Source: an uncultured Candidatus Saccharibacteria bacterium (GTDB lineage Bacteria; Patescibacteriota; Saccharimonadia; Saccharimonadales; CAZICT01). From it: a DNA stretch of 64,000 nt. The stretch spans positions 2,013-66,012 of the forward strand of contig CAZICT010000003.1 in the NCBI GenBank assembly GCA_964537935.1. Reading direction: 5' to 3'. A program made the translations under genes and the position numbers. The notes beneath the pieces were generated by a model. It did not search any database. It worked only from the letters and a program-made list of their open reading frames with translations, and had not been told where the DNA came from. Shown here in pieces: positions 10,041 through 63,769 of this stretch; position 1 is the stretch's first letter; each line of letters opens with the position of its first letter.

Positions 10041-10042
10041 TA

Positions 10043-10078: not shown

Positions 10079-10090
10079 TCGTCAGCTATA

Positions 10091-10892: not shown

Positions 10893-10894
10893 AC

Positions 10895-11269: not shown

Positions 11270-11282
11270 ACTTGGTTCATAT

Positions 11283-12145: not shown

Positions 12146-12146
12146 G

Positions 12147-38066: not shown

Positions 38067-38145
38067 AGCATAACAGCTTTAACCTGTAGTATAGCAGATT
38101 ACCCGGGGCTCGTCTTAGCTGAACTTATGCGAAATTCAATTAACA

Positions 38146-38173
38146 AAAAACACCTCTTTTCAGAGGTGTTTTT
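38146..38173. terminator. bidirectional intrinsic terminator after pilA
   Basis: aaaaacacctct-tttc-agaggtgttttt. Confidence 0.75.
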
Positions 38174-38190
38174 ATATTAAGCAGAATTAC

Positions 38191-38682: not shown

Positions 38683-38794
38683 TGTGAGGACCCACCCTTT
38701 CTTAAGTGTGTTTATACTTTTTGATCTTACCAATAGGTAAGTATCTGCAGTAAAGTATAACCATTAACGCAATCAGGTCAATAGTAAACCAGGG

Positions 38795-40000: not shown

Positions 40001-40002
40001 AG

Positions 40003-44997: not shown

Positions 44998-45074
44998 TAC
45001 GGTTCCAGTATAGACAATTCAAACGTGTGGATAAATGCTTGCACACAATTAAGTATCATAGAATACTTCATACT

Positions 45075-46559
45075 ATGAAACGATTAAGATGTGGTGCCTT
45101 AATCCTTGTGGTGATGCTGTTGCCTGGTACGGCCCACGCCCAAATCGTAGAAGACTTGCCTGAAGAAGCGCCTTTTTCGCCGAGAATTTTTATCCAAGCC
45201 ATTCAGGTTAGCGGCAAAGAGTTTGTGGCACTTAAAAACAACAGCGAAGAAGAACTTTCGCTCGGTAATTATCGTATCCAGTATTTCAACGACTATGACG
45301 TGGCCGCCGCATCAAGTAGTAAATTGATTGATCTGTCAGAAATTATTTTGCCAGCCGAAGCAACTTTGTTATTGCTTACCGAGCCGACATTTGTGTGTGA
45401 AGGAATGGTGGTAGGCAGTGCCAGCTTGGGCTTTGCCGATAAAAAGGGGCTAGTCCAAGTCGTGCGCGAAACACAGCTAGTTCCCGGCGGGCCGGTTTCT
45501 GTGGAAGTGGAGGATGCGATTGGCTGGTCAGACGAAGCTGAGCCACCAGAGGAAGTCGAGAAGACTCCTGAAAGTAAAGATCAGTTCTTTTGGCGAAAGA
45601 TTACTGAAGAGTTAGATAGCGATCTGGAAACGGCCCCGTTGCCATTTAGTGAATGGTCATGGCAAATCGCAAAAACAGATGAAGAAAATGTGTGCGACAT
45701 AACACTTGTAGACAACAGTCCGATTAATGAAGATGAGCAAACAGAAGCAGCATTACCACCGCTTACTTTGGCGCCAAAAGTTGAACCGCCTGCAACCATT
45801 TTGCCAAAAACTACACAAGTGGTTGCCGCAAAAACAACTGCCAAGAAGCCGGTTTATCCGGCCAGGAGCATAGGGTTGACTGCGCCGCAGATCACCGAGC
45901 TGCTGCCTAACCCGGGTCCGCCATTAACCGATGCCGACGATGAATTTATCGAACTTTATAACTCGAATGACAAAATATTTGAGCTGAGCGGCTTTAAATT
46001 AGAAGTAGGATCAACCTCAAAACGGACTTATACCTTTCCGCAAGGAACACTTCTAAAGCCAAAATCATTCACGGCGTTTTACTCGACTGATATAAGCGTG
46101 AGTTTGGCTAACACCAAAAGCCAAGTCAGGCTACTTGATCCATTCGGTAATATGATTAGTGAAGCTGAGGTTTATGAAAAAGCCAAGGATAATCTGGCTT
46201 GGGCGCTAGCTAGCGGTAAATGGTATTGGACTACAACCGTTACACCGGGCGCGGCGAATGTTATAAGCGAACCGGCCGCCACAGTAAAAGCAGCCTCAAC
46301 ATCTAAGGCTAAGGCCGTATCAGCTACTTCTTCTGGAGGCAGCACAACGAATGGCTCAGGCGCCGGATCAATCGCACCTGATCCGCTTCCGGAAGAAAAC
46401 AACAATGATTCGCTTCACCCGATAGTGCTTGCTGGCGTGGGTATGCTCGCGCTAGGATATGCCTTGTATGAGTATCGTCAAGACATTGCGCATCGAATCA
46501 ATCAATTCAGACAATACCGAGCAGATCGGCGAAGCCATAGGACGTCGGCTCAGGGGTAG
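45075..46559 (+). CDS. lamin-tail-domain (LTD) surface protein with C-terminal TM anchor
   Basis: Signal peptide MKRLRCGALILVVMLLPGTAHA. ITELLPNPGPPLTDADDEFIELYNSND LTD signature plus a weaker N-terminal LTD. TM helix near the C-terminus. Confidence 0.7.
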   Translation: MKRLRCGALILVVMLLPGTAHAQIVEDLPEEAPFSPRIFIQAIQVSGKEFVALKNNSEEELSLGNYRIQYFNDYDVAAASSSKLIDLSEIILPAEATLLLLTEPTFVCEGMVVGSASLGFADKKGLVQVVRETQLVPGGPVSVEVEDAIGWSDEAEPPEEVEKTPESKDQFFWRKITEELDSDLETAPLPFSEWSWQIAKTDEENVCDITLVDNSPINEDEQTEAALPPLTLAPKVEPPATILPKTTQVVAAKTTAKKPVYPARSIGLTAPQITELLPNPGPPLTDADDEFIELYNSNDKIFELSGFKLEVGSTSKRTYTFPQGTLLKPKSFTAFYSTDISVSLANTKSQVRLLDPFGNMISEAEVYEKAKDNLAWALASGKWYWTTTVTPGAANVISEPAATVKAASTSKAKAVSATSSGGSTTNGSGAGSIAPDPLPEENNNDSLHPIVLAGVGMLALGYALYEYRQDIAHRINQFRQYRADRRSHRTSAQG

Positions 46560-46956
46560 GGAGGTTTTTGAACTCAACAGCGACCTCGGGGGAGGCAAAA
46601 CTACCTTTGCCAGAGGTCTGGCGCGTGGCGCAGGCAGTAGTGATCATGTTGCCAGTCCTACGTTCACGATTAGCAGACAATATTACGCTGACCAGCTCAC
46701 TATTTATCATTATGATTTCTATCGATTAAGTGAAGCCGGCCTTATGCAGTTCGAACTAAGTGATGCTTTTGACGATCCTTCTGGCGTGGTGGTCGTAGAA
46801 TGGGGAAAGATAGTACGGGGTGTTTTACCGGAATCACGGGTTACAATACATATTACGCGTACAAACGAGAGCGAACGGATTATTGAAATAACATACCCGG
46901 AAGAACTAGACTATTTATTACAAGACTATGCTGATACTAACAATACGAACCGATAA
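46468..46956 (+). CDS. tsaE: tRNA t6A37 biosynthesis ATPase TsaE
   Basis: L.SDLGGGKTTFARGLARG P-loop and HYDFYRL motif. The start is uncertain (46459, 46468 or TTG 46486) and overlaps the upstream gene. Confidence 0.8.
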   Translation: MSIVKTLRIESINSDNTEQIGEAIGRRLRGREVFELNSDLGGGKTTFARGLARGAGSSDHVASPTFTISRQYYADQLTIYHYDFYRLSEAGLMQFELSDAFDDPSGVVVVEWGKIVRGVLPESRVTIHITRTNESERIIEITYPEELDYLLQDYADTNNTNR

Positions 46957-47320
46957 ACCTGAAGCCGAACTGGGCCTCTATGAAGGCAAAAACAAACTTA
47001 AGAGTCTGGTTTGGGTTGCGCACAGAAAACTGGCAGAGCAGTTGCTTGGCAAGATAGAAGATCTTTTAGCCGACCAGCAAAAAACTTTTCCTGATATCAA
47101 AGCTATAGCTGTCTACGAAGGGCCAGGCAGCTTTACCGGTCTTAGAATTGGAGTTAGTACAGCAAATGCGCTTGCGTACGGCTTGAATATTCCAGTTATT
47201 GCTAAAGGTGGTAATGATTGGGAAGAATCTGCAATCGATGAACTTCTGCAAGGAAACGCGCATCCTACGGCAATTCCTAACTACGGTCAAACGGCTCACA
47301 TCACACAGCCCAAGCGTTGA
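46928..47320 (+). CDS. tsaB: TsaB (YeaZ)-like protein, N-terminal domain only
   Basis: YEGPGSFTGLRIGVSTANALAYGLNIPVI. Only 130 aa. Confidence 0.78.
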   Translation: MLILTIRTDKPEAELGLYEGKNKLKSLVWVAHRKLAEQLLGKIEDLLADQQKTFPDIKAIAVYEGPGSFTGLRIGVSTANALAYGLNIPVIAKGGNDWEESAIDELLQGNAHPTAIPNYGQTAHITQPKR

Positions 47321-47397
47321 TAATTGTAGACTCCTGTTGCATTGATTGGTTTTTTGCTACAATAAACCGTAAGAATAATCGAAAATAAATAACCTAT

Positions 47398-48354
47398 ATG
47401 TCTAGCCAAAGAAGTCAAACGCATAATCGAACTATCAGACGCGGACAATATGACACGCACCGTCACTCGCAAAATTCGGCGCGCCTTCAGCCTAGCGACA
47501 AAAGCAAAACAGTTACGGGTAAATCAGAAAAAAACGACCAAAAACCCAAGTCAAAAAATACCACTACGGCGCCCAAAACAAAGTCTAAACCGGCATTACC
47601 ACGTCAATCGCGGTCTATGGTGCTTGCTCGACCATCCCTAAAACCAAAAAAGAAAAAAATTCGTAAAAAAAGTCTCAGGCGTCCAAAAGTAGGCCTTAAA
47701 CATGCGGTTCTACTTTTTATGGTAATAGTTAACGCTGTGCTAAGCGCTGTATATGTAGTGCCCCACTTAAGAGGTGAGCATAGTGAAGACCCAATGGATG
47801 TAGTAGCCGTCAATACTATAACGACGGATTCGGCGGACATTCAAAACAGTGGCCATGCAGATGAAACTGAAGTACTTGGCGAGGTCATATCAAATTACGA
47901 AGTAGCCCATGATCTACCGCGACTGCTTATTATTGACAAGATCGGTGTAAAAGCGCGCGTGAAACGGGTCGGTGTCGGTCCTGCAGGAGCCATGCTGACG
48001 CCGAGCAACATCAACGATGTCGGTTGGTATGATGGCAGCGTCAAGCCAGGTGAAAAAGGCGCGGTTGTACTTAACGGGCATATCACCGGCGCATCAAGGC
48101 CGGGAGTGTTTGACAGGCTCGGTTCACTGAAAGAGAATGATGTACTTAAGATTGAGCGCGGCGACGGAAAAATTGTCAATTATAAAGTCGTCGGTTTTGA
48201 TAGCGTTGAACGAGGAAAGCTTAAGTTAGATACTTTGGTCGAATCAAAAGACCCGAGCAAACCTGGCCTGAATATAGTGACGGCCTCGGTTAGATTCGAC
48301 GTACGAACCAACAAATTTGAACCACATTTAATCCTCTACACCGTACAGCAATAG
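47398..48354 (+). CDS. sortase-fold (class E/F-like) membrane protein lacking the catalytic cysteine
   Basis: Lys-rich N-terminus, TM helix, then VGWYDGSVKPGEKGAVVLNGHITG..VFDRL..L..ND and NIVTASVRFD where sortases have TLxTC. The product contains no Cys at all. Confidence 0.6.
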   Translation: MSSQRSQTHNRTIRRGQYDTHRHSQNSARLQPSDKSKTVTGKSEKNDQKPKSKNTTTAPKTKSKPALPRQSRSMVLARPSLKPKKKKIRKKSLRRPKVGLKHAVLLFMVIVNAVLSAVYVVPHLRGEHSEDPMDVVAVNTITTDSADIQNSGHADETEVLGEVISNYEVAHDLPRLLIIDKIGVKARVKRVGVGPAGAMLTPSNINDVGWYDGSVKPGEKGAVVLNGHITGASRPGVFDRLGSLKENDVLKIERGDGKIVNYKVVGFDSVERGKLKLDTLVESKDPSKPGLNIVTASVRFDVRTNKFEPHLILYTVQQ

Positions 48355-48542
48355 CTATTGTTGACCAAGCCTGTTCTATGAGCGTATATTTGTAGTCAGG
48401 ATTTGATGCTGGGAGAAAAAGCCAAAAGCAAAGTCCACTTTGTTATATTTAATGTTTGATTATCTAAAGATATTGTCAAAGAGCTAATGAAGTGAAAGTG
48501 ATTGCTCGCTAGACATCTTTAGTGCCGATAGAAAGGGAAAAT

Positions 48543-50057
48543 ATGGAACCTATCACTCTTCTGCTGGTAGCGGTTGGAGCAGCGGCAGGGTTTGGCGCGA
48601 GCACGTACGCGACCAAAAAGAAGCTGGGCTCTGCGGAAGCACAAGTTGAAAAAGAACTGAAGAAAGCTCGTAAGGAAGCAGAAAAATTATTAGAAGAAGC
48701 AAGAACCGAAGCCGCGGAAATCGCTGAAACAGCCCGTAAGGATGAAAGTGCACGGCGTAAGGAATTGAAGACAATCGAGCAGCGGTTATTGGACCGTGAG
48801 GAAAACCTTGATAAAAAACTCGATGATCTTGATAAGCGGACTGAATCTTTGCGCAAGGGTGAGGATGAAGTTGAACAGCTTAAAAATGAAATTCGTGAAA
48901 TTAGAGTTCGTCAGCAGGACAAGCTGGAAAAAATCGCTAAGCTTACCAAAAAAGAAGCTGCAGAAAAGCTTATGCAGATGACAGAACGCGATATACGCAA
49001 TGATCTGACCGGGCTTATCAATAAACTGCAAAACGAAGCCAAAGAGCTTGCTGAGGAAAAGGCGTCGACGATTATCGTTGAGGCCATGGAGCGTATGGCA
49101 AGCGAAGTGACTGCCGAGCGAACAGTAACAGCGGTCAAGCTTGATGATGAGGATATGAAGGGCCGTATCATCGGTAAAGAGGGGCGAAATATCCAGGCAT
49201 TACAACGTGCCACAGGCGTAGATATCATGGTGGACGATACTCCGGGCATGATAATCTTAAGCTCCTTTGATCCGGTACGGCGTGAGGTAGCTCGTCGGGC
49301 GCTTGAAATGCTGCTCAAAGACGGTCGTGTACATCCTGGCCGAATCGAAGAAGTCGTTGAAAAAGCTCAAAAAGAAGTCAACAAAGATGTTATCCGCGCC
49401 GGAGAAGATGCTGCCCGTGAAGTCGGCATCATCGGTATTCCAAAAGAAATTTTACAGCTGCTTGGAGAACTTAAGTTCCGCACCAGTTACGGTCAGAATG
49501 TACTCAAGCATAGTACTGAAATGGCGCACATGGCCGGAGTAATTGCCGAACAGATAGGCGCGGACGTGAAGACCGCCAAATATGCAGCCCTAATACACGA
49601 TATCGGCAAAGCATTGACTCATAAAGTCGAAGGTAAGCATCACCATATCGGTGCTGAAATTGCCCGTAAATATGGTGTGCCGGATCCGATTGTTCACGCT
49701 GTAGAAGCTCACCACGACGACATAGAGGCTACTACGGTTGAAGCTTTGGTTATCCGTGTAGTTGATGCCATCAGCGCAGCCCGTCCCGGTGCTCGTAATA
49801 TTTCTGCTGAAAACTTTGCGGAACGCATGCGCGACCTTGAGAACGTCGCCAACAGCTTTGAGGGCATTGAGAAATCTTATGCCATAAGTGCCGGCCGTGA
49901 GGTACGGGTCTTTGTCCGTCCTGGAGATGTTGATGACCTGACCGCTATCAAGCTGGCCCGCGATATTGCCACCAAGATCGAGTCAACGATGCAGTACCCC
50001 GGTACCATCAAGGTTAACGTTATCCGCGAAACCCGTGCTATAGAATTCGCCAAGTAG
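48543..50057 (+). CDS. rny: ribonuclease Y
   Basis: N-terminal TM helix, coiled coil, KH domain (GRIIGKEGRNIQ), HD domain (HDIGK). The GTG start at 48522 was trimmed to the ATG after GAAAGGGAAAA. Confidence 0.96.
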   Translation: MEPITLLLVAVGAAAGFGASTYATKKKLGSAEAQVEKELKKARKEAEKLLEEARTEAAEIAETARKDESARRKELKTIEQRLLDREENLDKKLDDLDKRTESLRKGEDEVEQLKNEIREIRVRQQDKLEKIAKLTKKEAAEKLMQMTERDIRNDLTGLINKLQNEAKELAEEKASTIIVEAMERMASEVTAERTVTAVKLDDEDMKGRIIGKEGRNIQALQRATGVDIMVDDTPGMIILSSFDPVRREVARRALEMLLKDGRVHPGRIEEVVEKAQKEVNKDVIRAGEDAAREVGIIGIPKEILQLLGELKFRTSYGQNVLKHSTEMAHMAGVIAEQIGADVKTAKYAALIHDIGKALTHKVEGKHHHIGAEIARKYGVPDPIVHAVEAHHDDIEATTVEALVIRVVDAISAARPGARNISAENFAERMRDLENVANSFEGIEKSYAISAGREVRVFVRPGDVDDLTAIKLARDIATKIESTMQYPGTIKVNVIRETRAIEFAK

Positions 50058-50059
50058 AC

Positions 50060-50551
50060 ATGCCGTTCTTTAGCCACGAAGAAAACAGACGCCATCATAA
50101 CAGCCTGCCAGCCAAGCCGATGTCAGCCGGCGTGGTTTTTAGGGACGAGTCCGGCAAGATTATGCTGGTTAAGCCGAATTACCGCGACTTTTGGATTGTT
50201 CCTGGCGGTAATATCGATGAAAACGAATCGCCGCTTAACTGTGCGGTCCGTGAAGTAAAAGAAGAAATTGGTCTAGAGATTAGGCCTAGGCAATTGTCTT
50301 TCCGCTTAGTGGATTACCGACCAACACATGACGGTTTTAGCGACAAACTTAATTTTTACTTTGACGGCGGTACATTGAACCCAGAGCAAATCGACCAAAT
50401 CAAATTACAAGAAGAAGAATTGGACGAATACCGTTTTGTAACGCTTGATGAAGTTATAGAACTGAGTAGTGACTGGACAGCTCGACAGATACGGTTTGCC
50501 ATAAGTCAGGGCGGCCCGTTTTATCTAGAAGGCGGCCGACAGGTAAAGTAG
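50060..50551 (+). CDS. Nudix hydrolase
   Basis: Nudix box GGNIDENESPLNCAVREVKEEIGLE. Confidence 0.88.
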   Translation: MPFFSHEENRRHHNSLPAKPMSAGVVFRDESGKIMLVKPNYRDFWIVPGGNIDENESPLNCAVREVKEEIGLEIRPRQLSFRLVDYRPTHDGFSDKLNFYFDGGTLNPEQIDQIKLQEEELDEYRFVTLDEVIELSSDWTARQIRFAISQGGPFYLEGGRQVK

Positions 50552-50616: not shown

Positions 50617-53600
50617 ATGACAAGGTGCATGGGGATTCTGCATAGCAGTGGTGCGGTCTGGCGTAAGTCAAGGTCAGTCAGATTATTCGGAATCATTGCA
50701 ACACTACTAGTCAGTCAATTTAGTTTTCTGATTATGAGCACGACCAAGGTGGGTGCAGCGCCTGGTGATGGGCATATGCTGTTATTTTGGGATGGCGGAT
50801 CGGCTCCAAGTGGCTGGTCTTGTGTTTCTTGTAGTCCTGGCGATCCGTTTTATCAACGTTTCCCAAGAGCAAATCAAACTTACGGAGCTGTCGGTGGTAG
50901 TGCATCTCACAGTCATACGGTAACTGCAGTAGCAGATGCCTCAACTGCGACCGCCTCATTTGCTACAAGTGGAACTGCCATAGCCGACCGCACCCATAGC
51001 CACTCTGCTAGCGCGACAGTTAGCACAGTTTCCAGTCTGCCTGGCTATCGACAACTCAACATAATTCGACGTGATAATCCAGGGGAGCCCGGCACACTGC
51101 CAGCAGGAGCTATCGCTTTATTTGACGAAGCGGTGCCAAGCGGTTGGACGAGGTACGCTGCTCAAGACGGATATTATCCTTATGGGGGCTCCAGCGCTGG
51201 ATCCACCGGCGGCAATAACAATCACAACCATACCGTAAACGGAAGCCTGGATACAGCTAGCGGCATCACTCAAGGACAGGTTAACTTTTTTGGATCTCCT
51301 TCGGCGCGCTCCAACCACACTCATACTTTCAGTGGAACCAACAACTCGGTCAATCATGAACCGCCATACATTACAGCCATATTCGGAAAGCTCAACTCAG
51401 TGTCGACGTCTCCCGATGGCATGTTAGCCATGTGGGATGATGATGCGCCAAGCAATTGGACGATACAATCCGGCAGTTCAGGCAGTTTTTACCAACGGTT
51501 TATTAAGGGATCGGCTACCTACGGAAGTATTGGTGGCACGTTAAGTCATACACATAATGACCATAGTGTAGTTTCTAGCGGTCCTTCCGGCGGTTCGCTA
51601 AGTAGTTTAGGTGGAAGTCAAACAGCTTCAGGCTCTCATACTCATCAAGTGCATTTAACTAATTATTCAACCGAAGATAATATACCGCCTTATCGTGATG
51701 TAATAATTGCCAAGCGCGTACCGCAATCAGAAACCAATCTAGCGGCTTATAGGGTCTATAAAAACCATAATTCAACTGATATAGGTGAGCCATTAGCCAA
51801 TCAAAACACGATTGGCACGACCCCTAAAAAAGGCCGCACTTTTCGGGTGCGTATGCTCATAACAGTTACCAGCGCCAATCTTGGTATAGCCAATAAGGTA
51901 TTCAAGCTTCAAGTAGCCGAGCGCTCCGGCACGTGTGATACCGGTTTTATTGGTGAGACGTATAGCGACATTACTTCATCTGAAGGTAATATTAGATTTG
52001 CTGATAATACAAACGCTGCAGACGGCGCCAGTCTCACAGTCAATGCTGCCGATCCAACCAGCAGCAACCCAATAATTGCTCAAACCTACGAAGAGGATAA
52101 TACCTTTACCAATAATGCCGAAATCGCAATCGGCCAAGATGGTATGTGGGACTTTGCACTTGTTGATTATGCATCAAACGCATCCACCAGCTATTGCCTC
52201 AGAGTTGTGTATGGTGACGGTACGCTGCTGGATGACTATAGTGTCATTCCTCAAATAATTACCGATGATGGAAGCGGACACATGCTGCTGTACTATGCCG
52301 GAACAACCGTACCCTCCGGTTGGGAGTGTGTTTCATGTTTGCCAGAGGATGATCTCTACCAGCGTTTCGCACGCGGTTCAGATGCTTATGGCGCCAAAGG
52401 CGGATCGGCAACTCATAGCCACAGCGCTGACGGAAGTGTCGGTGGATCAAGCACTAATACTGTCAGCACCAATGCCAATAATGGAATATCAACCAATAGT
52501 CACACCCACACATTCAATCCAATAATCAGCAATACTAATTTATTGCCCCAGTACCGACAGTTAAAAATCATTCGAGCCGAAGTTAGCGGAGTACCCAACC
52601 AGCTGCCTGCTGGAGTTATTGCGATTTTTGACGGCACATTGCCGACTGGATGGACGCGTTATTCAGCTCAAGACGGGTATTACATAAGGGGTGAAAATAC
52701 CGTAGGAACAACAGGCGGAAGCAATACTCACAGCCACTCCATAACCGGAACCACAGGGGCGGCAGTAGGTGAAGCTGGGTCAGGCGGCGGCATATTTGGA
52801 TTAGTTTCGGCGGCCGTGCATGGACACACTCATAACGTCAACGGATCTACCAACTCGGTTAATCATGAACCGTTATATCGAGCGGTCATACTGGCCAGAT
52901 TGAATTCTGCCAGCCCGGCTCCCCTAAATATCATTGCGATGTGGGATGAGACTCCGCCGCTTTCCTGGACTCGTATGTCCGACGAAGGAGGTCCTTTATA
53001 CGAACGATTTACCAAAGCAGCGGCTACCTACGGTGGAACCGGTGGCAACGCCAGTCACTCCCATGCCAATGTAAACATCAACACTTCGGGTCCGAGCATA
53101 ACTACCAATGTTGCCAATAACGGCACTAACTCAAGCGGTTCTCATACGCACACTGTTACGGTGTCGAACATATCGTCTGAAGACAATCTTCCGCCGTATA
53201 CGGATGTAATTTATGCCAAGCAGGGCGCACTAAACACAGCACCTTATTCACCGGCTAACAGCCAGCAGTTACGTTCGAGCGATAATAGCCCAATTACGGT
53301 AGGCGCCTACTCAAACGGTTCACAGGTTACTTTCAGAGCTGAAGTCGAGGATCCTGATCCGGTAGACAGTCTACAGTTGTGTATAGAGATTGAGCTAATC
53401 GGGACAAATTTTGATAACAATCCCACGCAGTGTGGTGCCAGCGTGGACTACACAGGAGAACCGGTAGAGGCTGAAATGACGATCAATGGCCTGAGCGATG
53501 GGGCAAGCTACCACTGGCAGGCACGAGTTAAGGACGGCGGCGGCGCGATCTCTTCGTGGACAGCTTTTGGAGGTAATCCGGAAAATCAGGCTGATTTTAT

Positions 53601-54429
53601 AATGGACAGTTCGGCGCCGACCGGCTCGGTTTATGATGGTGACATCACTGGTTCCGATCAGGAATATAACGACGGGGCACTGGATAATTTATCGGCAAAC
53701 TGGGAATTTACAGATAGCGGCTCTGGGTTAATGGGTTATGAATATGCGATTGGAACAGCGCCTTCATCCACGGATATCAAACCGTATACCAGCGTTGGAC
53801 TGAATGACAGTGTGACAGCGCCTTCCTTGGCGCTTACCACCACGCAGGTTTATTATTTCAGTATTCGAGCTGTCGATAACGCTGGCAACGAAAACGTTAT
53901 TTCATCGGACGGCCAGCTGGTAGCTCCGTCAATATCATTCTCGGCAAGCACCGGCAGCATAACCTTTAACGGACTTAACCCTGGTAATGGCTACACCGAT
54001 ACGCAAACCACAACACTACAAACGACCACCAACGCCAAAAACGGCTATGTTATCAGAGCATACGCAACCGGCTTACTTACTTCTTCGAATGGGGAAACAA
54101 TCGATATGTTTGATGGCGGTACATATGCAAATCCCGATAGATGGAATCCAAATGACAAGGGGTTTGGCTACACTTCCAGCGACACCCTTGTGCAAGGTGT
54201 CAACAAATTTCATGCACCTATGTGTTTTGACGGCGGTACCAATTCTTGTTTTGCACCTTATTCCTTAACGTCACCAGGTGACATTGTTGCCGATAATCCT
54301 GGCCCGGTTTCCGGAACAGCAATATTAAATGAGATATTCACTATCACGCATAGAGTTACTACAAACAACGTGCAAGAGACGGGTAAATATACAACTACTC
54401 TGGTGTTCAATGCTTCGGTTTCGTTTTAG
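50617..54429 (+). CDS. giant secreted/surface protein with 2 x 3 tail-collar-like HxH modules and Ig/Fn3-like C-terminal domains
   Basis: N-terminal hydrophobic segment. Six modules of the form x-F/W-D..P.GW..(x)..Y.RF..YG..GG..HxH...HxH...(E/D)xxPPY. The start is uncertain (50575 TTG, 50617 or 50629 ATG). Confidence 0.75.
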   Translation: MTRCMGILHSSGAVWRKSRSVRLFGIIATLLVSQFSFLIMSTTKVGAAPGDGHMLLFWDGGSAPSGWSCVSCSPGDPFYQRFPRANQTYGAVGGSASHSHTVTAVADASTATASFATSGTAIADRTHSHSASATVSTVSSLPGYRQLNIIRRDNPGEPGTLPAGAIALFDEAVPSGWTRYAAQDGYYPYGGSSAGSTGGNNNHNHTVNGSLDTASGITQGQVNFFGSPSARSNHTHTFSGTNNSVNHEPPYITAIFGKLNSVSTSPDGMLAMWDDDAPSNWTIQSGSSGSFYQRFIKGSATYGSIGGTLSHTHNDHSVVSSGPSGGSLSSLGGSQTASGSHTHQVHLTNYSTEDNIPPYRDVIIAKRVPQSETNLAAYRVYKNHNSTDIGEPLANQNTIGTTPKKGRTFRVRMLITVTSANLGIANKVFKLQVAERSGTCDTGFIGETYSDITSSEGNIRFADNTNAADGASLTVNAADPTSSNPIIAQTYEEDNTFTNNAEIAIGQDGMWDFALVDYASNASTSYCLRVVYGDGTLLDDYSVIPQIITDDGSGHMLLYYAGTTVPSGWECVSCLPEDDLYQRFARGSDAYGAKGGSATHSHSADGSVGGSSTNTVSTNANNGISTNSHTHTFNPIISNTNLLPQYRQLKIIRAEVSGVPNQLPAGVIAIFDGTLPTGWTRYSAQDGYYIRGENTVGTTGGSNTHSHSITGTTGAAVGEAGSGGGIFGLVSAAVHGHTHNVNGSTNSVNHEPLYRAVILARLNSASPAPLNIIAMWDETPPLSWTRMSDEGGPLYERFTKAAATYGGTGGNASHSHANVNINTSGPSITTNVANNGTNSSGSHTHTVTVSNISSEDNLPPYTDVIYAKQGALNTAPYSPANSQQLRSSDNSPITVGAYSNGSQVTFRAEVEDPDPVDSLQLCIEIELIGTNFDNNPTQCGASVDYTGEPVEAEMTINGLSDGASYHWQARVKDGGGAISSWTAFGGNPENQADFIMDSSAPTGSVYDGDITGSDQEYNDGALDNLSANWEFTDSGSGLMGYEYAIGTAPSSTDIKPYTSVGLNDSVTAPSLALTTTQVYYFSIRAVDNAGNENVISSDGQLVAPSISFSASTGSITFNGLNPGNGYTDTQTTTLQTTTNAKNGYVIRAYATGLLTSSNGETIDMFDGGTYANPDRWNPNDKGFGYTSSDTLVQGVNKFHAPMCFDGGTNSCFAPYSLTSPGDIVADNPGPVSGTAILNEIFTITHRVTTNNVQETGKYTTTLVFNASVSF
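50764..51717 (+). repeat. intragenic repeat set A (three tail-collar-like modules)
   Basis: GDGHMLLFWDGG..SGWSCVSC.. through ..DNIPPYRDVIIAKR. Collinear with set B at 52270-53223. Confidence 0.8.
52270..53223 (+). repeat. intragenic repeat set B (three tail-collar-like modules)
   Basis: GSGHMLLYYAGT..SGWECVSC.. through ..DNLPPYTDVIYAKQ. Module-by-module counterpart of set A. Confidence 0.8.
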
Positions 54430-55357
54430 GTTTTGGCTGGTCTTTGTAGGTTTTTTGTTGTTTTTGCCGCTAAAAAACCATAGCTTGAATGCCCAGCAAA
54501 CCGTGGCGCCAACCATAAATGTCGCACCGGCCGTGATTGAAACTACTGTTAAGCCGGGAGAGGAGATCGAGCGGTTCGTGACAATTCGTGTGGATGGAGA
54601 AAATAGCCTGCCAATCAGTGTCCAAGTCCATCCTTTGTACGTGAACAGCGAATTACTTGACCCTTTAGACACCTCGAGATACGACTTCAAAAAACACATT
54701 TCGATAGACAATACCGATTTTATTGTTAATCCTGGAAAACCTGCCAAAATAAGGCTCAAGATCACTCCGCCGGAAGATTCGAGTGGCGGTTACTACGCCC
54801 AGCTGAACGTAAGGAGCCTGTATATTGAGGATACGCCCAGCTCACCTAGTAGCGCCAGAGTATTTCCGGAAGTGAGCGTGCCGATATTGCTTTCAACTAA
54901 CCAGGAAGTTATTAATGACGCACAGATTCCAACCAAAAATATATTTCCCTGGCAGTCAGCACCAAATCAAACCAGAGTTGCCACATTCGAGCTCGAAAAC
55001 ACCGGCAACATTCATAATCTTATGACTCCACAGGTGATTATTACCAGAAATGGACAAGAGGTTGAAAGCTTTACCGCGCAACCGTTTGTACTGTTGCCTA
55101 ATTCCCGGAAGCAGGTTGATATAAGTTGGCAGGTGCCGCAGGACTATGGGGTATACGAAGCGTCTATCAGTATGCAGCTTGGCGGTGAAGGGTTTACGAT
55201 TGATACTCCTAAGGAAAGGGTTATCGTTATGCCCAGCCCGCTTAGCATGCTGATATTTATAATTCTCATATGCTTGGGCGCTTATATTTTAGTTAATAAA
55301 AACAGGTTTATAAAGGCAGTAAAGGTACTTATTAATCCGGATAAAAAAATAACTTAA
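54410..55357 (+). CDS. DUF916/DUF3324-like (CscA-like) surface protein with C-terminal TM anchor
   Basis: Signal peptide MLRFRFRFWLVFVGFLLFLPL, two beta-sandwich-like halves, C-terminal TM helix plus basic tail. The ORF-track start at 54329 was trimmed. Confidence 0.5.
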   Translation: MLRFRFRFWLVFVGFLLFLPLKNHSLNAQQTVAPTINVAPAVIETTVKPGEEIERFVTIRVDGENSLPISVQVHPLYVNSELLDPLDTSRYDFKKHISIDNTDFIVNPGKPAKIRLKITPPEDSSGGYYAQLNVRSLYIEDTPSSPSSARVFPEVSVPILLSTNQEVINDAQIPTKNIFPWQSAPNQTRVATFELENTGNIHNLMTPQVIITRNGQEVESFTAQPFVLLPNSRKQVDISWQVPQDYGVYEASISMQLGGEGFTIDTPKERVIVMPSPLSMLIFIILICLGAYILVNKNRFIKAVKVLINPDKKIT

Positions 55358-55425
55358 TCTTCTTGTGCTTTTTAAAATGTTTATGTAAAGTATATTTAAC
55401 TTCAGACTATGAAGAGCAACACTAA

Positions 55426-56490
55426 ATGGGGGAAACAATGAAGACTATGACTGGTAGGCCAACGGCGCTTGTGGTGTTGGCTGCTTTATTAATGGCGACG
55501 CTTATTCCGGCAGCTCGGGTTATTGCTTTGACGAATAGCTCTCTTGCTCTGTCCGATCCGCGTACCAATCAAACAAACGTCAGTTATACGTTGAGCGTAA
55601 ACGGCTTGGCCGGCTCATCAATACAATGTATTGATATCTTTTTAAACACAGCTGCCGATGGCTCCGGCTCGGCGGTGCCTGGTATCGATACGTCCTCATT
55701 TGACCTTAGCAGTTCAACCGCTCTTACAGTGGGTTCATGGACTGAGAACACATCGGTAAACGGCCGGCTTCGCATCACGAGTGCAGGTGAAACGCCCAGC
55801 GCAAACGGCAACTTTGTATTTACGGGTATAAATAACGGCTCGAACACCGGAACCACTTATTACGCGGTATTTACCTCGTACTCAACTTCCGGGTGTACCG
55901 GTGGCAGCGAAGTTGACGAAGTATCGGTAGCTTTCGTTTACACCGATGGTGAATTGGTTGAACTTACCGTAGAACCAACATTGACCTTCAGCGTTAACAG
56001 CGTTGGATCAGGAGAAGACGTAAATTCTGTTCAAACCACTGCGGCTTCTTCTGCCAGTGGTATAGATTTCGGCAATAATGTAACTCAAGCCGCAAACGGG
56101 ATTTCAGCACACGATCTTGTTGTGACCACCAACGCGGTCGGCGGCTACACCGTATATATTCGCCACACCGGTAATCTTTCAAACGGTTCGCATGACATTG
56201 ACAATCATAGTGGTACCAATGCGTCACCAACTAGTTTTCCGGGTGTAGGTACCGAGGCTTGGGGATATGCGACTGAAGACAGCTCGCTCGCAGGCGGCAC
56301 GGCTAATCGCTTTACGACAGGCAATAACTGGGCTGGCTTTAGCGAAACCAACCAACCGGTAATGGACAACACCTCAGCTACGGTCGGTACCGACACGACT
56401 CGCGTCGGTCACCAAGTAGGTATTGCTGCTACCACCCCGGCAGGCTCATACCAAACCACCATAGTCTACACGGTTACCTCCACATACTAG
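55426..56490 (+). CDS. secreted beta-rich surface/fibre subunit candidate (WxL- or SCPU-like C-terminal strand)
   Basis: Signal peptide, Ser/Thr/Gly/Asn-rich, ends TTPAGSYQTTIVYTVTSTY. The start may be 55438. Confidence 0.45.
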   Translation: MGETMKTMTGRPTALVVLAALLMATLIPAARVIALTNSSLALSDPRTNQTNVSYTLSVNGLAGSSIQCIDIFLNTAADGSGSAVPGIDTSSFDLSSSTALTVGSWTENTSVNGRLRITSAGETPSANGNFVFTGINNGSNTGTTYYAVFTSYSTSGCTGGSEVDEVSVAFVYTDGELVELTVEPTLTFSVNSVGSGEDVNSVQTTAASSASGIDFGNNVTQAANGISAHDLVVTTNAVGGYTVYIRHTGNLSNGSHDIDNHSGTNASPTSFPGVGTEAWGYATEDSSLAGGTANRFTTGNNWAGFSETNQPVMDNTSATVGTDTTRVGHQVGIAATTPAGSYQTTIVYTVTSTY

Positions 56491-56556
56491 TAGTGCTTTG
56501 CATATCGGTGTGTCCGGTCTACAATATATTCAACAGTTAAAAAATACGGTGTTTGA

Positions 56557-57510
56557 GTGAGGAAACGACAAATCTTTTATGCGGCAGTTGCTTTCGTAGT
56601 CTCGGGAGCAACTGCTGTATTTGGTATCAACCTAATTCATGCCCAAGAAACTGAAAATCAGATTACATTGGCTGTTTCACCCCAGAGCCTGGATCTGACC
56701 GCTAATCCGGGCGAAAAGCTTACCAACACATTCCGTCTTACTAATGCTTCGAATGAAGCGGTCGAAATCGCAGTAGCTACAAAAAACTTTGTCCCGAGGG
56801 GCGAAGAAGGAGCAGTTGATCTTACGACCGATACGACCGGATTTTCGTTGGCGGAATGGATGGAGGTTCAGCCGCAAACCGTAAACCTCGGTGCGGGGAA
56901 GACAGAAGATTTTAAGGTTGATATCTCAGTCCCGGACGAAGCAGAACCGGGCAGTCACTTTGGATCGGTGGTATTCAGTACGGTGCCACAGGAAAGGGAA
57001 GGTACGGCAGCAGCAGTTTCTCAGGAAATTGCTCCGGTTATCCTGGTGCGTGTAGCTGGCGAAGTGGAAGAGTCGGCTCGCATAGTCGATTTTAAGGCCG
57101 ATAAATCTTTTTATAGCAACGAAGATAGCGTTACGCTCACGTCACGCATAGAAAATACCGGCAGTGTTCACTTCAAGCCGGCCGGAAAAATCGAAATAAA
57201 AAACATGTTCGGTAAAAAAGTCACAGAAATCGAACTTGATAAAAGGAATGTGCTTCCGGGGTCAGTCAGACAAATACCAACTACATGGGATAGCAGCGGT
57301 TTTAAGATTGGTCGGTATAAAGCGACACTCACGCTGGTTCTAGGTGACGGCAATATTATAGAAACAGACGAAACAACCATAACGTTCTTCCCGTACCAAG
57401 TTATCGTACCGGTAATACTCGTGATTGCGTTGGTTGTGTTTGGGATTGTCAGATATCGACAGCGCATAAAGTTGGCCCTAAGAGTACTTAGAGGCAAAGA
57501 CAATTCGTAG
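56557..57510 (+). CDS. DUF916/DUF3324-like (CscA-like) surface protein with C-terminal TM anchor
   Basis: ITLAVSPQSLDLTANPGEKLTNTFRLTN..., ..EPGSHFGSVVFS.., C-terminal TM helix plus RYRQRIK. Paralogous architecture to 54410-55357. Confidence 0.5.
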   Translation: MRKRQIFYAAVAFVVSGATAVFGINLIHAQETENQITLAVSPQSLDLTANPGEKLTNTFRLTNASNEAVEIAVATKNFVPRGEEGAVDLTTDTTGFSLAEWMEVQPQTVNLGAGKTEDFKVDISVPDEAEPGSHFGSVVFSTVPQEREGTAAAVSQEIAPVILVRVAGEVEESARIVDFKADKSFYSNEDSVTLTSRIENTGSVHFKPAGKIEIKNMFGKKVTEIELDKRNVLPGSVRQIPTTWDSSGFKIGRYKATLTLVLGDGNIIETDETTITFFPYQVIVPVILVIALVVFGIVRYRQRIKLALRVLRGKDNS

Positions 57511-58889
57511 TGTTTCGATTATTGCGAAACAACAGTAAAGCTCTTTGTGTCGTGGCGTGTGCCGCGGTTATGGCGAATTTATTTTGGAATGGTAGCCTTA
57601 CGGCTCAGACGCCAGTTAGACTGACAGTGCCGGATACAGCCGTACGCATCAGTGGTTTTGCGGCTCCTAAGGCGCTTGTGACCGCCAAGCGTGATGGAAC
57701 GGTAGTCGGTTCTGTTACCGCCAATAGCCAGGGAGGTTTTGAGTTCGTGTTCGGTTCGCAAACACCCGGAATCTACAACTACAGTGTTTTTTATGAGCAC
57801 CTTAATGGTTTGCGTTCAGTTGAAGAAACGATGTCGGTAAGCGTACAAAACAAACAAACCACCGACATCAGGATTTATTTGCGACCGCTTGTTTTACCTC
57901 TTTTGGACGACGAAGTCGTTCAGGGCGGCATTTTACAAGTGCGCGGTCACACTGCGGCTGGTGGAAAAGTCGTTTTAACTATAGACGAAAACAAGCAGGA
58001 GCTGTCAGCGACTGCCGATTCAAGCGGGTTCTATGAGTTTTTGATTGATACCAAAAACTTGAATACCGGACGGTACCATTTCAAAATAACCGCAACCAAA
58101 GATGGGCTATCAAGCGACCGAACGTCACCGGTTTCTTTTACGGTTCATGCCAGCAACAGTACTGATGCCGATCCGACAGACGATGTGACTGTCCAGCCGG
58201 AACAACTGCCGCCGCCAACAGTTTCTTCACCTCAGGACGGAGAGACGATTGAGGGTAAAAGCGTCACGATTTATGGACGTTCCTCTCCCGGTTCGCAAGT
58301 TAATATTTATACCGATGACAATCTGATAGCCTCGGTCCTGACCGGCGAAGACGGTTCGTGGAACTACAACTACACCGCCAATACTCCTAAGGTCTCTTTC
58401 TCTTTCTCAGCGTGCATCGAAAGCCGATGTAGCATTATTACAAGAAGCATCACAGTTTCTTTCGCTGTTCCCGATTCATGCTCAGTAGAGCTTGAGCTGA
58501 GTGCGCTTAGGTTTTGGGATATTGCAGCCGGCAGCCAAATAGAGCTGGAGGTTATCAGGGCCTCAGGCAACGGCGAGTTCACCATAGATTGGGGCAACGA
58601 CAGCACTGAAACATATTCACATGATGGAAAGTTACCCCGTGTCTTTAGGGGCCGCTACGACTTTCCCGGCTTATACCAGGGAAAAATTACATACCGGCAA
58701 TATTCGACAGCTACCACCAGAGCTTGCAGTGCGGAGCGTGTATTCAGTATCAATGTTCGAAACGAGCTTAGTAAAAGCGATTTTAGCCCTGCTTTGCGAG
58801 TCGGCATATTCAGCCTGGCGCTAGTAAGTGTTTCCGGTGCGCTATGGTTCACCCGCAGCAAGTGGCTGGCTTTACTGTTACGAAAATAA
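57510..58889 (+). CDS. Ig-like repeat surface protein with C-terminal TM anchor
   Basis: Signal peptide. Repeated beta-sandwich segments (VRISGFAAP..VTA, LQVRGHTAAGGKVVLT, ETIEGKSVTIYGRSSPGSQVNIY). Its GTG start overlaps the upstream stop. Confidence 0.5.
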   Translation: MFRLLRNNSKALCVVACAAVMANLFWNGSLTAQTPVRLTVPDTAVRISGFAAPKALVTAKRDGTVVGSVTANSQGGFEFVFGSQTPGIYNYSVFYEHLNGLRSVEETMSVSVQNKQTTDIRIYLRPLVLPLLDDEVVQGGILQVRGHTAAGGKVVLTIDENKQELSATADSSGFYEFLIDTKNLNTGRYHFKITATKDGLSSDRTSPVSFTVHASNSTDADPTDDVTVQPEQLPPPTVSSPQDGETIEGKSVTIYGRSSPGSQVNIYTDDNLIASVLTGEDGSWNYNYTANTPKVSFSFSACIESRCSIITRSITVSFAVPDSCSVELELSALRFWDIAAGSQIELEVIRASGNGEFTIDWGNDSTETYSHDGKLPRVFRGRYDFPGLYQGKITYRQYSTATTRACSAERVFSINVRNELSKSDFSPALRVGIFSLALVSVSGALWFTRSKWLALLLRK

Positions 58890-58931: not shown

Positions 58932-59720
58932 ATGAGAATTCTTTATGTCGGCGATATTATGGGGCGGCCGGGAATTGATACCGTCGCTCAGATTTTACCG
59001 GAAATGCGGTCGCTTCACGAACCTGACTTGATAATTGCCCAAGCCGAAAACGTAACCGAGGGTAGGGGTATGTCAGGTGAAGATATGCAAGAGCTGCAGA
59101 GTCTTGGGATTGATTGCTTTACCGGCGGCAACTGGAGCACGTTCCGGGACGGCGTATTGAACGATACCGATCCGGTAACGCGTCCGGCCAATTATACGAC
59201 TGAAACTCCCGGGAAAGGTTACCGTTATATCGGAACGTCCCTAGGAGAGGTGCTGGTAATCAGTTTGCTTGGAAAGATCGTTGGCAAAGATGCGGATAAG
59301 ATTATTAAAAATCCGCTGCAAACTATCGATGAGATTCTGGAAAAAGAGAACGACCGTAAAAAAATTGCTACCGTGGTTAATTTTCACGGTGACTACAGTA
59401 GTGAAAAGCGAATAATCGGCTACTATCTGGACGGCAGGGTGTCTGCGGTAATCGGCGATCATTGGCATGTGCCAACAGCTGATGCCATGGTTCTGCCAAA
59501 GGGTACGGCTCATATTACAGATGTAGGAATGTGTGGCAGCTTGCACTCAAGCTTGGGAGTGAAGCTTGAGAGCGTAATTCCCAGGTGGCAAAAGGGAAAG
59601 ACGACCAGAAACGTCATTGAAGACGCAAAACCTTATCAATTTAATGCAGTGCTGGTCGAAATAGACAAAACTAGCGGCCTAGCCAGCAATATTACTCATA
59701 TTCAAAAAATAATAAGTTAG
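58932..59720 (+). CDS. ymdB: YmdB-like metallophosphoesterase (2',3'-cyclic-nucleotide phosphodiesterase family)
   Basis: MRILYVGDIMGRPG, AENVTEGRG, GNW, HWHVPTAD motifs of TIGR00282-type proteins. Confidence 0.9.
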   Translation: MRILYVGDIMGRPGIDTVAQILPEMRSLHEPDLIIAQAENVTEGRGMSGEDMQELQSLGIDCFTGGNWSTFRDGVLNDTDPVTRPANYTTETPGKGYRYIGTSLGEVLVISLLGKIVGKDADKIIKNPLQTIDEILEKENDRKKIATVVNFHGDYSSEKRIIGYYLDGRVSAVIGDHWHVPTADAMVLPKGTAHITDVGMCGSLHSSLGVKLESVIPRWQKGKTTRNVIEDAKPYQFNAVLVEIDKTSGLASNITHIQKIIS

Positions 59721-62064: not shown

Positions 62065-62141
62065 CGGGGATTGGCGCAGTTGGCTAGCGCGCGCGGTTTG
62101 GGACCGCGAGGTCGGAGGTTCGAGTCCTCTATCCCCGACCA
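62065..62141 (+). tRNA. tRNA-Pro(UGG), CCA encoded
   Basis: CGGGGATTGGCGCAGTTGGCTAGCGCGCGCGGTTTGGGACCGCGAGGTCGGAGGTTCGAGTCCTCTATCCCCGACCA folds as a cloverleaf. Confidence 0.96.
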
Positions 62142-63769
62142 CGATCGAAATCATTCGATATTAAGAACCCTTTCCAGGGTTCTTTTAATTTGAAATCAAC
62201 TTTGTACCCCTGTTTTTTGTCCTTGAGCGGGGCAGTAATAGTGAAGTTCGAGAAAAAGTTTTTTAATACGTTGTTCATTAGCTCAATATCATGTATTTGC
62301 GGGATTGTAACAGATGCATTTCCAATAAGTTCGAGATATTTCTCATAAGTTATTACCGAGCCTTTTAGTGCTTTCCTCCGGTCAGTTGCTTTCTTGAATT
62401 GGTTTTCTAACTTCTTCAGCTCTTTCTGCATTGCATCCAGATCATAGTGTTGCTTCATGCTAGGATCATTGGCCACTAAGTTCTTAGCATTTTCATATTT
62501 TTCCTCTTTAGTGGCGATAACCTTCATGAGTTCAGCAATCTGTGAAGAGAGTTTTCGTGCGCGTTTCTTGTTAGTCTCTTCAACACGCTTAACATGTTCC
62601 TTGTAGTTTGACCGAGTTGTAAAGCGGTACTTGTTAAAGAAGTCTATTACTTCATTCAGGACCACCTTTGCACGAATGCTCTTGTTTTTGAACGGACAAG
62701 TGAATGTCTCGCATTTGTAATAGTAGTAATACTTAGTTCCGGGCTTCAGTTTCTTAGATGTTATCCCTGAAGCAAATGGTTTTCCGCAGTGACCACAGTC
62801 AATCATACCTCTTAAAAGCATGGCTCTCGTGGTTCTTGGGTTTTTAACCAGCATAGAGGACTCCAGGCGACCTGATTTGAAGCTAGACACCCTATTTATC
62901 TTCATGAAGTCTTCAACGGTCACAGCAGGCTCAAAATCATAATAATCGTGCAAATTGACCGTATGTTTCCCGTACTTTAGTACTCCGGCGTAGGTAGGGT
63001 CCTTCAAGAGTTTTGAAATAGCATCTTTATCCCATTTGAACCGTATGTGTTCTTTTCTATATGGCTTCACCGTGTAAGTAGTTGTGTTTAGCCATTTTGC
63101 TATATCAGCTTGTGTCTCCTTATTAAGCCGTTCTTCGAAAACACGTTTTATTAAAATGAAGTTCTCACCATCAGGTTGCAGCCTCCGTTGTTCATCAATA
63201 TAGTATCCATGTTTCTTTTTACCTAGGAATTGACCGCTTTCAGTGATCCTTTTATTGCCTCTTGTTACAGACTCGCTCAAATGCTCAGAGTATTGCTTAG
63301 AGAGAACGAAGGATATGCCTAATGTCATTTTTCCAGTAGGTGTATTTTCGAAAGAACTTGTAGCAAACTGGAGATCCTTGATAATGCCTTTATCCAGAAG
63401 GTCAATGATCTCTCCGGCCTCTTTCATATTTCGAGAGAGTCTATCAGGATGCCAGGAGAGGATTGCGTCAGCTTTACCATCAATGATTTCTTTAATGACG
63501 CTCCTAAACTCAGGACGCGTCTCCGATTGTTTTGCGGAGGCCTTTTCTTTAACGACTTTTACGATGTTAAGAGATCGAGGATTTGCTATCCGTTCCATAC
63601 ACTCCTTAATTTGATCAGGTATGGACCTCTCTTGACGCTCCTCGTCATAGGTAGATTTCCTAGCGTATAAAATGTATCGGAGGTTAGTGACGTCAATTTC
63701 AGAAGGACTATCATCTTGAAGACTACCTTGAAGTAGTTCGTGAAGCTCTTTAGGGTTGCTGGGTAGCAT
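62129..63769 (-). CDS. large serine recombinase (resolvase catalytic domain + recombinase domain + zinc-ribbon/coiled-coil)
   Basis: YILYARKSTYDEERQERSIPDQ (catalytic Ser), ILSWHPDRLSRN, Cys cluster CGHCGKPF...YYYKCETFTCPF. The last four codons overlap the tRNA-Pro 3' end. Confidence 0.9.
   Translation of the reverse strand: MLPSNPKELHELLQGSLQDDSPSEIDVTNLRYILYARKSTYDEERQERSIPDQIKECMERIANPRSLNIVKVVKEKASAKQSETRPEFRSVIKEIIDGKADAILSWHPDRLSRNMKEAGEIIDLLDKGIIKDLQFATSSFENTPTGKMTLGISFVLSKQYSEHLSESVTRGNKRITESGQFLGKKKHGYYIDEQRRLQPDGENFILIKRVFEERLNKETQADIAKWLNTTTYTVKPYRKEHIRFKWDKDAISKLLKDPTYAGVLKYGKHTVNLHDYYDFEPAVTVEDFMKINRVSSFKSGRLESSMLVKNPRTTRAMLLRGMIDCGHCGKPFASGITSKKLKPGTKYYYYYKCETFTCPFKNKSIRAKVVLNEVIDFFNKYRFTTRSNYKEHVKRVEETNKKRARKLSSQIAELMKVIATKEEKYENAKNLVANDPSMKQHYDLDAMQKELKKLENQFKKATDRRKALKGSVITYEKYLELIGNASVTIPQIHDIELMNNVLKNFFSNFTITAPLKDKKQGYKVDFKLKEPWKGFLISNDFDRGRG

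Follow-up and report, generated by a model that had tools for sequence, protein, structure and literature searches.

A gene cluster beside rny in a Saccharibacteria genome: a probable minimal operon for a Pam-type pilus

RESULTS

Gene content of the cluster

We analyzed a 64,000-nucleotide stretch of contig CAZICT010000003.1 from an uncultured Candidatus Saccharibacteria bacterium (the window) and describe here a cluster of five genes on its forward strand (50617-58889), which lies between rny and a Nudix gene on one side and ymdB on the other (Table 1). The cluster encodes a giant protein, two chaperone-like proteins (B and D) that flank a Ser/Thr/Gly-rich protein (C), and an Ig-repeat protein (E). 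As argued below, it is probably an operon for a pilus of the Pam type, a filament known from Candidatus Mycosynbacter amalyticus, where it was solved by cryo-electron microscopy (Troman et al., bioRxiv 10.64898/2026.03.03.709456).

The genes are tightly packed. The ATG of B lies 20 nucleotides inside the 3' end of the giant gene, and the GTG of E shares one base with the TAG of D. The giant gene has an alternative start (TTG at 50575), and public gene calls place the start of B 16 codons later, giving a product of 299 amino acids (aa). A hydropathy scan found an N-terminal hydrophobic segment of the signal-peptide type on all five products and a C-terminal one, followed by basic residues, only in B (269-301), D (272-304), and E (427-447). 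An earlier prediction made from the letters alone (the original prediction) had called these cell-surface structure genes, with nothing but exported proteins encoded between rny/Nudix and ymdB; its open reading frames (ORFs), overlaps, and exported content all agree with the ORF positions and the scan, and the surface role stands. The giant gene lies outside the core that it had drawn (54410-58889) yet belongs to the system; the Nudix gene is not a member. No second copies of the cluster families were found elsewhere in the window. A promoter and terminator scan of the cluster gave signals no better than those of shuffled sequences, and none above chance marks an operon. The closest database relatives are metagenome-assembled genomes (MAGs) of Saccharibacteria/Saccharimonadales. 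For comparison, 61 loci with a relative of protein C were taken from GTDB species representatives and labeled L001 onward.

Table 1. Coordinates of the cluster, its flanking genes, and the features discussed in the text (CTD, C-terminal domain)
Feature	Position	Strand	Details
rny	48522-50057	+	RNase_Y_N, KH, HD domains
Nudix gene	50060-50551	+	
Giant protein, probable pilus tip adhesin	50617-54429	+	1270 aa from ATG at 50617
First HxH triplet of tip protein	50764-51735	+	aa 50-373; three ~107-aa modules, two HxH motifs each
Second HxH triplet of tip protein	52273-53241	+	aa 553-875
C-terminal pilin-like domain of tip protein, presumed donor-strand acceptor	53914-54429	+	about aa 1100-1270
Chaperone-like protein 1 (B; PamC/PamD-like, WxLIP-like), membrane-anchored	54410-55357	+	paralogue of D
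Major pilin (C), PamB-like build	55426-56490	+	signal peptide, sandwich 39-171, linker 172-185, CTD 186-354
Pilin linker (TDGELVELTVEPTL region), presumed donor strand	55939-55980	+	aa 172-185
Chaperone-like protein 2 (D; PamC/PamD-like, WxLIP/DUF916-like), membrane-anchored	56557-57510	+	PF06030, AlphaFold2, Foldseek
PamR-like terminator and membrane anchor (E)	57510-58889	+	Big_6 x3, Big_13, NF058578, transmembrane segment
Mature N-terminus of anchor (TPVRLTVPDTAVRI), pilin-linker-like, presumed terminating donor strand	57609-57650	+	aa 34-47
ymdB	58932-59720	+	PF13277, 1.9e-71

Protein C, the probable major pilin

Protein C is 39% Ser, Thr, and Gly and ends in ...TVTSTY, without a hydrophobic tail. 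AlphaFold2 models were made of two monomers, this protein and D. The model of C (predicted local distance difference test [pLDDT] score, 90.5) consists of a signal helix, nine strands, a coil linker of lower pLDDT, and a CTD, at the positions given in Table 1, and a nine-strand N-terminal domain followed by a linker and a CTD is the build described for PamA and PamB. The NCBIfam model NF058581, "Pam pilus system pilin subunit" (CPR_Pam_pilin_C), matches it with an E value of 2.8e-6 over profile positions 4-148 of 148, and the match stops at the last residue of the protein; 47 of the 56 members of its family match the same model (best, 7e-10). Relatives of the pilin make up 1326 representative clusters in 1.84 billion proteins.

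No Pfam family matches the pilin at E ≤ 1, and so there is no WxL or SCPU match of the kind that the original prediction had read from its C-terminal strand; NF058581 was matched instead. Neither the single sequence nor the 56-sequence family profile gave a real match, or any WxL chain, among PDB sequences, in a copy of the PDB that contains no Pam structure, and the 50 best Foldseek matches of the model include no Csu pilin.

Conservation is strong through the linker and into the first CTD strand: G175, L180, L186, and F188 do not vary in the alignment, and V178, P184, and T185 are each more than 90% conserved. In M. amalyticus, too, the donated linker is among the most conserved regions of the pilins (10.64898/2026.03.03.709456). 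Some relatives carry a tandem pair of pilin genes (L012, positions 10028-12391; also L029, L030, and L032); the cassette of the window, which has a single pilin gene and a single tip gene, represents the minimal form.

The giant protein, a probable tip adhesin

The giant protein ends like the pilin. A hidden Markov model (HMM) built from pilin CTDs alone matches its residues 1130-1266 (34 bits, E = 1.6e-11; E = 3.7e-10 when all ORFs of the window were searched), and BLASTP aligns the two C-termini end to end. In about 40 related loci, the large protein whose gene directly precedes that of chaperone 1 is matched by the same HMM over its final ~170 aa. These proteins span 250-3499 aa, and the match invariably extends to the last residue. 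This end-to-end pattern also occurs among the best-scoring of the 1326 representative clusters. The linker motif of the pilins is found in none of 50 tip-like proteins.

The rest of the protein varies among lineages. Homologues of the giant protein with 46-54% identity sit upstream of chaperone 1 in relatives, and an N-terminal part of the HxH type occurs in the window and in L004. L003, L006, and L010 have a different body (1700-1900 aa), L038 and L045 have LamG/ConA lectin domains, and other relatives have NHL-type repeats. In L004 (positions 6-9016), tip-adhesin genes stand in tandem, one of the HxH type (1250 aa) and one of another type (1686 aa). Its pilin-type CTD makes the giant protein probably a tip adhesin, and a lineage-variable N-terminal part joined to a shared acceptor domain is the sequence pattern to be expected of one.

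In the window, the protein has an N-terminal hydrophobic segment at aa 20-42 and contains 12 HxH motifs, as the original prediction of an HxH-repeat protein implied. They lie in six modules of ~107 aa grouped as two triplets, and there are further spacer and Ig-like domains. Eleven positions are invariant in all six modules (P15, W18, G41, G44, G45, H49, H51, H78, H80, P93, and Y95). The modules have no match in Pfam, searched with the whole protein and with five segments of it, or in PHROG; a six-module profile retrieved only affinity-tag artefacts from PDB sequences, and a search of 5.8 billion proteins returned nine short unnamed fragments and no known family. To our eye the modules resemble the HxH domains of phage tail-collar and tail-fibre proteins. 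No library matched them; the likeness is suggested in part by the phrase "tail fibre-like protein" in the Pam preprint, and it is only a guess that the HxH region might imitate, in one polypeptide chain, a phage fibre trimer carrying His6 metal sites.

Two membrane-anchored chaperone-like proteins

B and D align over their full length with 22% identity (E = 2e-9), and a profile of the D family matches B at E = 1e-32. D is modeled (pLDDT, 92.7) as a pair of beta-sandwich domains with a helix (280-312) at the C-terminal end, so that the paralogy, two sandwich halves, and C-terminal anchor originally described are all recovered. By Foldseek against the PDB, the top matches of D are the Enterococcus faecium WxLIP structures 9i1y and 9i25 (E = 1.8e-12; template modeling [TM] score, about 0.4), which represent the free and "bound to long WxL" forms, followed by the CFA/I chaperone CfaA (7e-12) and by CsuC, FimC, Caf1M, FaeE, and DraB (1e-9 to 1e-8). 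In sequence, D passes the cut-off of PF06030 (WxLIP_PGBD, formerly DUF916) with 32.0 bits against 27.3, and 47 of the 58 members of its family match this model, whereas B reaches only E = 0.1. The best PDB sequence match of the D-family profile is EfmWxLIP1, collinear in both domains (E = 0.013). PF11797 (DUF3324) is matched weakly (E = 0.17); of the DUF916/DUF3324- or CscA-like assignment first proposed, the DUF916 part is thus supported and the DUF3324 part is not. No Pam chaperone model was matched in an NCBIfam scan of the chaperone family. The predicted fold of D is the same as that of the chaperones of chaperone-usher systems, and B and D are the nearest known relatives of WxLIP.

Signal peptide, two PapD/FimC-like domains, and C-terminal transmembrane helix are also what characterizes the two chaperones of the Pam system. 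The gene for B is always directly 3' of the tip gene in related loci. Because each chaperone gene comes after that of its presumed client, gene order suggests that B serves the tip protein and D serves the major pilin. The first strands of D (QITLAVSPQSLDL, aa 32-48, 56650-56700) and B (PTINVAPAVIETT, aa 28-44, 54490-54540) resemble the stretch in which the pilin linker runs into the first CTD strand (VELTVEPTLTF), and in an ungapped BLOSUM comparison of 14-mers chaperone N-termini score fairly high (median, 14; maximum, 27). This likeness could be strand mimicry or a common start of Ig domains.

The affinity to WxLIP raises the question of whether the cluster encodes a WxL/Csc-type complex, as originally suggested, in which anchored DUF916/DUF3324 proteins dock nonpolymerising surface proteins on the wall and no filament is made. 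It is this reading that the PF06030 matches of D and its relatives and the top rank of WxLIP by both structure and sequence speak for, and WxLIP is likewise anchored by a transmembrane helix and predicted to complete the WxL fold by a strand. The clients do not fit it. At E ≤ 1, Pfam matched no WxL family in B, D, the pilin, or the giant protein, nor is one listed among the matches of the anchor; the pilin profile matches no WxL chain, and the pilin resembles a Pam pilin both in its two-domain build and by its NF058581 match. DUF3324 is matched at no better than the E value of 0.17 given above. An LPXTG motif is absent, on reading the sequences, from the ends of all five proteins, and there is therefore no CscD-like partner. 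For want of a WxL domain and an LPXTG partner, we reject a WxL/Csc complex as the identity of the cluster and consider it improbable.

The Ig-repeat anchor

Pfam finds three Big_6 stretches and a Big_13 domain in protein E, in line with the Ig-repeat protein and membrane anchor of the original prediction. The NCBIfam model of PamR (NF058578) matches it at E = 3.5e-5 over aa 234-392 and matches 15 of 23 anchor homologues from related loci (best, 2.7e-19), all of them well below 300 bits. Ig domains, a signal peptide, and a C-terminal transmembrane segment together form a PamR-like architecture.

Among the closest relatives, the anchor has at its mature N-terminus the sequence V-[EQ]-L-T-[IV]-P-D-T, which reads much like the pilin linker (V-[QE]-L-T-[IV]-D-P-T). 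The motif [VI][EQ]LT[IV] occurs in 12 of 39 pilins, every time within the linker, and in 7 of 35 anchor homologues, every time at aa 30-46, compared with 1 of 94 chaperones and 3 of 635 other ORFs (213,601 residues). This sequence pattern is suggestive and would back the idea, put forward in the preprint, that PamR ends the fibre via a donated N-terminal strand.

Synteny and history of the rny-ymdB region

The order tip, chaperone 1, pilin (one or two copies), chaperone 2, anchor is found in the loci long enough to show it. It recurs in records of Saccharibacteria, WWE3, Woesebacteria, Parcubacteria, Kaiserbacteria, and Microgenomates, over which pilin identity falls from 62% to about 30%. Such conservation bears on the suspicion that unrelated exported adhesins and Ig-domain proteins merely stand side by side here, without sharing a route of assembly. 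Weak matches are many, Ig-like folds being common, and no signal above chance defines an operon; but an order kept to about 30% pilin identity in several classes of the candidate phyla radiation (CPR), overlapping genes, and a C-terminal domain common to tip and pilin make a chance neighborhood very unlikely. Most unlikely of all is a sortase-assembled pilus of the Gram-positive type, which we reject for lack of sorting signals: a sortase gene (47398-48354; PF04203, 2.7e-12) does lie two genes upstream, in a place upstream of rny that is kept in relatives, and the Ig repeats of the anchor are of a kind seen in such pili, but LPXTG-like sorting signals are lacking in all five proteins, as is a hydrophobic tail in the pilin, rny intervenes between sortase and cluster, and L008, whose upstream genes differ, has the cassette without a nearby sortase.

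The original prediction, noting that rny and ymdB are neighbors in Firmicutes, saw the cluster as an inserted island. Part of this holds: the rny-ymdB pair is split in this genome, whereas in L002 the order is tsaE-tsaB-sortase-rny-ymdB-cluster, with rny and ymdB adjacent. L001, L003, L006, L010, and L018 have sortase-rny followed by the cluster, with ymdB missing from the next stretch of about 3-8 kb; what follows the anchor in relatives is, as far as we can judge by eye, a membrane protein, a VIT-like gene, an MgtC-like gene, and murA, not ymdB. Among the closest relatives, rny is usually the neighbor of the cluster; it is ymdB alone whose place changes. A recent insertion is rejected because the GC content is unremarkable (0.45-0.50 in the cluster versus 0.39-0.52 over the whole window) and the cassette is widely conserved. 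The cluster is an old resident beside rny, conserved vertically across Patescibacteria.

Two observations concern the records themselves. In L002 (1961-8155), a long-read MAG, rny and the giant gene are split into several frames, by appearance through assembly frameshifts, so that gene order can be used there and ORF lengths cannot. The cassette also occurs in loci titled Gammaproteobacteria, Pseudomonadales, Methylomirabilota, or Acidimicrobiales (L020, L022, L024, L027-L035, L037, L040, L050, L053, and L060), with a GC content of 0.34-0.50. Mislabeled or misbinned MAGs are the likelier explanation; if the titles were true, the claim that Pam pili are confined to the CPR would fall.

Other features of the window

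Upstream of rny, the region 45027-48354 begins with a gene whose exported product (510 aa) contains two lamin-tail domains (PF00932, 9.4e-19) and has a hydrophobic segment at its C-terminal end; next come tsaE, tsaB, and the sortase gene. The sortase-rny order is kept in L001, L002, L003, L006, and L010. No substrate of this sortase was identified in the pilus cluster. Genes at 36397-41814 on the reverse strand appear by eye to encode a type IV pilus (PilB-, PilC-, pilin-, PilM-, PilN-, and PilO-like proteins); with the Pam-type cluster, this would place two different filament systems within 20 kb. Near the end of the window, a tRNA-Pro gene (62065-62141, +) abuts the 3' end of a 546-aa ORF (62129-63769, -), with an overlap of 13 nucleotides, and GC content falls to 0.42 in the last 2 kb. 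The ORF looks to us like a large serine recombinase, and this region may be the edge of an integrated element. Read from its sequences, the rest of the window holds recA, dnaK, and other genes of this housekeeping sort, along with the type IV pilus genes.

DISCUSSION

Identity of the cluster

These results make it likely that the cluster is an operon of minimal size for a pilus of the Pam type, a thin, adhesive surface filament of the CPR (Patescibacteria) built by donor-strand exchange with membrane-anchored chaperones and without an usher. The architectures of a Pam pilin, a pair of Pam chaperones, a Pam anchor, and a Pam tip are all present, and two Pam-specific models match significantly. 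The parts list and order match those of the published pam operon. The cluster is most likely a new example of a known system, not a new system, and the locus is probably a divergent member of the Pam kind. The view that no such system had been described in CPR-type genomes must be given up, since the Pam pilus of M. amalyticus has the same parts list.

Several points weigh against this identification. Every NCBIfam Pam match falls below its curated cut-off: the pilin scores 27.5 bits where 55 are required, 9 of 10 distant pilin relatives score 21-41 bits and none of the 10 reaches 55, and the anchor scores 22.8 bits against an equivalog cut-off of 300. The link to the Pam proteins of M. amalyticus runs via the NCBIfam models only, and Foldseek of the pilin against the PDB gave weak generic two-Ig matches with a TM score of about 0.2. 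The anchor of the window reads VRLTV, not the exact linker motif, and the BLOSUM 14-mer test did not separate anchors (median, 16) from other ORFs (95th percentile, 18). The donor-strand steps are proposed from models that cover monomers only. The flanking genes also differ, being rny, Nudix, and ymdB here and ATP synthase genes or CorB in the known system, and no ATP synthase genes of the kind that stand beside pam in M. amalyticus were noticed in the window, which was annotated in part. The Pam system itself is published as a preprint, in which the model of assembly is based on AlphaFold predictions (10.64898/2026.03.03.709456).

Proposed assembly and likely function

If the cluster is a Pam-type operon, assembly might proceed as follows. 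All five products would be exported by Sec, consistent with their signal-peptide-like N-termini. B and D, whose fold and anchor can be seen on the predicted model of D, would stay tethered in the membrane by the C-terminal helix, and each would lend a strand to the incomplete C-terminal Ig-like domain of its client. The giant protein, having a pilin-type acceptor domain by profile match and no linker motif, would start the fibre, and its variable N-terminal part, here the HxH triplets, may bind the host cell. Copies of the single pilin would then join, the conserved inter-domain linker of each entering the C-terminal domain of the previous subunit. The Ig-repeat anchor would stop growth by donating its linker-like N-terminal strand, and its C-terminal helix would tie the fibre to the membrane.

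The pilus probably serves to make first contact with a host bacterium, the role suggested for that of Ca. Mycosynbacter amalyticus. Pam pili, described only in 2026, are thought to make the first host-cell contact of some ultrasmall parasitic bacteria. A cassette of one tip, one pilin, two chaperones, and one anchor would be a convenient model for the order of assembly, and the locus points to the variable adhesin, fused to a pilin acceptor domain, as the protein that would carry host specificity. While the main discovery, that of the Pam pilus, has already been made, two things go beyond the preprint and are worth pursuing: the link of the chaperones to WxLIP and the adhesins fused to the acceptor domain.

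Comparison with known systems

In M. amalyticus, the pilins PamA and PamB consist of a nine-strand N-terminal sandwich, a linker strand donated to the neighboring subunit, and a C-terminal domain that is Ig-like but truncated. The chaperones PamC and PamD resemble FimC and PapD and carry a transmembrane helix at the C-terminus, PamR is RbmA-like, with an extra N-terminal strand and a transmembrane helix, and PamT is a tip subunit that has the acceptor domain only; PamE is also named, and a conserved "tail fibre-like" protein is a neighbor of pam. Homologues were found only in the CPR, chiefly in Saccharimonadia and Microgenomatia (10.64898/2026.03.03.709456).

The cluster studied here has in common with this system a host of the Saccharibacteria type, a pilin with sandwich, conserved linker, and C-terminal Ig-like domain, two PapD-like chaperones with signal peptide and transmembrane helix, the lack of an usher, an Ig protein related to PamR that has an additional N-terminal strand and a transmembrane helix, and an acceptor-only tip subunit, the last in fused form. 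It differs in gene order and in having one pilin gene instead of three (PamA, PamB, and PamE). The acceptor domain is fused to an adhesin of 1270 aa, while PamT has a single domain, and the anchor is longer, with 459 aa and extra Big_6 domains compared with the 297 positions of the PamR model.

WxLIP proteins (DUF916 plus DUF3324 plus a transmembrane helix; CscA) of Enterococcus, Lactiplantibacillus, and Listeria resemble B and D in having two Ig-like domains followed by a transmembrane helix and a gene that stands beside that of an exported client, and 9i1y and 9i25 are the best match of D. WxLIP is predicted to complete the WxL sandwich of its client with a strand and is anchored by its transmembrane helix (PMC10599100). 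The clients are WxL-domain proteins there and Pam-type pilins here, the phylum is another, no polymer is known for WxL proteins, and the DUF3324 half is barely recognizable in D. It is possible, though we lean slightly the other way, that Pam pili and the WxL/Csc complexes of Firmicutes are two branches of one old usher-less pathway of single-membrane bacteria, in which a membrane-tethered PapD-like chaperone of the DUF916 family would complete the fold of its client with a donated strand. If so, large interchangeable adhesins (HxH here, LamG or NHL elsewhere) join fibres via a fused pilin acceptor domain. Pfam DUF916 offers a bridge at the sequence level from CPR chaperones to the WxL loci of enterococci, listeriae, and lactobacilli; these loci are poorly understood, and the bridge could alter how they are read. 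The preprint makes no mention of WxL or DUF916 (10.64898/2026.03.03.709456), and we found no paper in the searched literature that ties DUF916 to chaperone-usher systems.

With the chaperone-usher pili (Fim, Pap, CFA/I, Csu, and Caf1), the cluster shares the chaperone fold (Foldseek E values of 7e-12 to 1e-8) and what appears to be a common logic of incomplete Ig-like subunits, a tip adhesin that comes first, and a terminator subunit. The pilins have no sequence similarity, and the donor strand is an internal inter-domain linker here and an N-terminal extension there. There is no outer membrane, the chaperones are tethered to the membrane, and no usher-like gene is present in the cluster or its flanks, all five products being accounted for. 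By analogy, then, the locus would work as a chaperone-usher pilus without the usher, as the Pam system is proposed to do.

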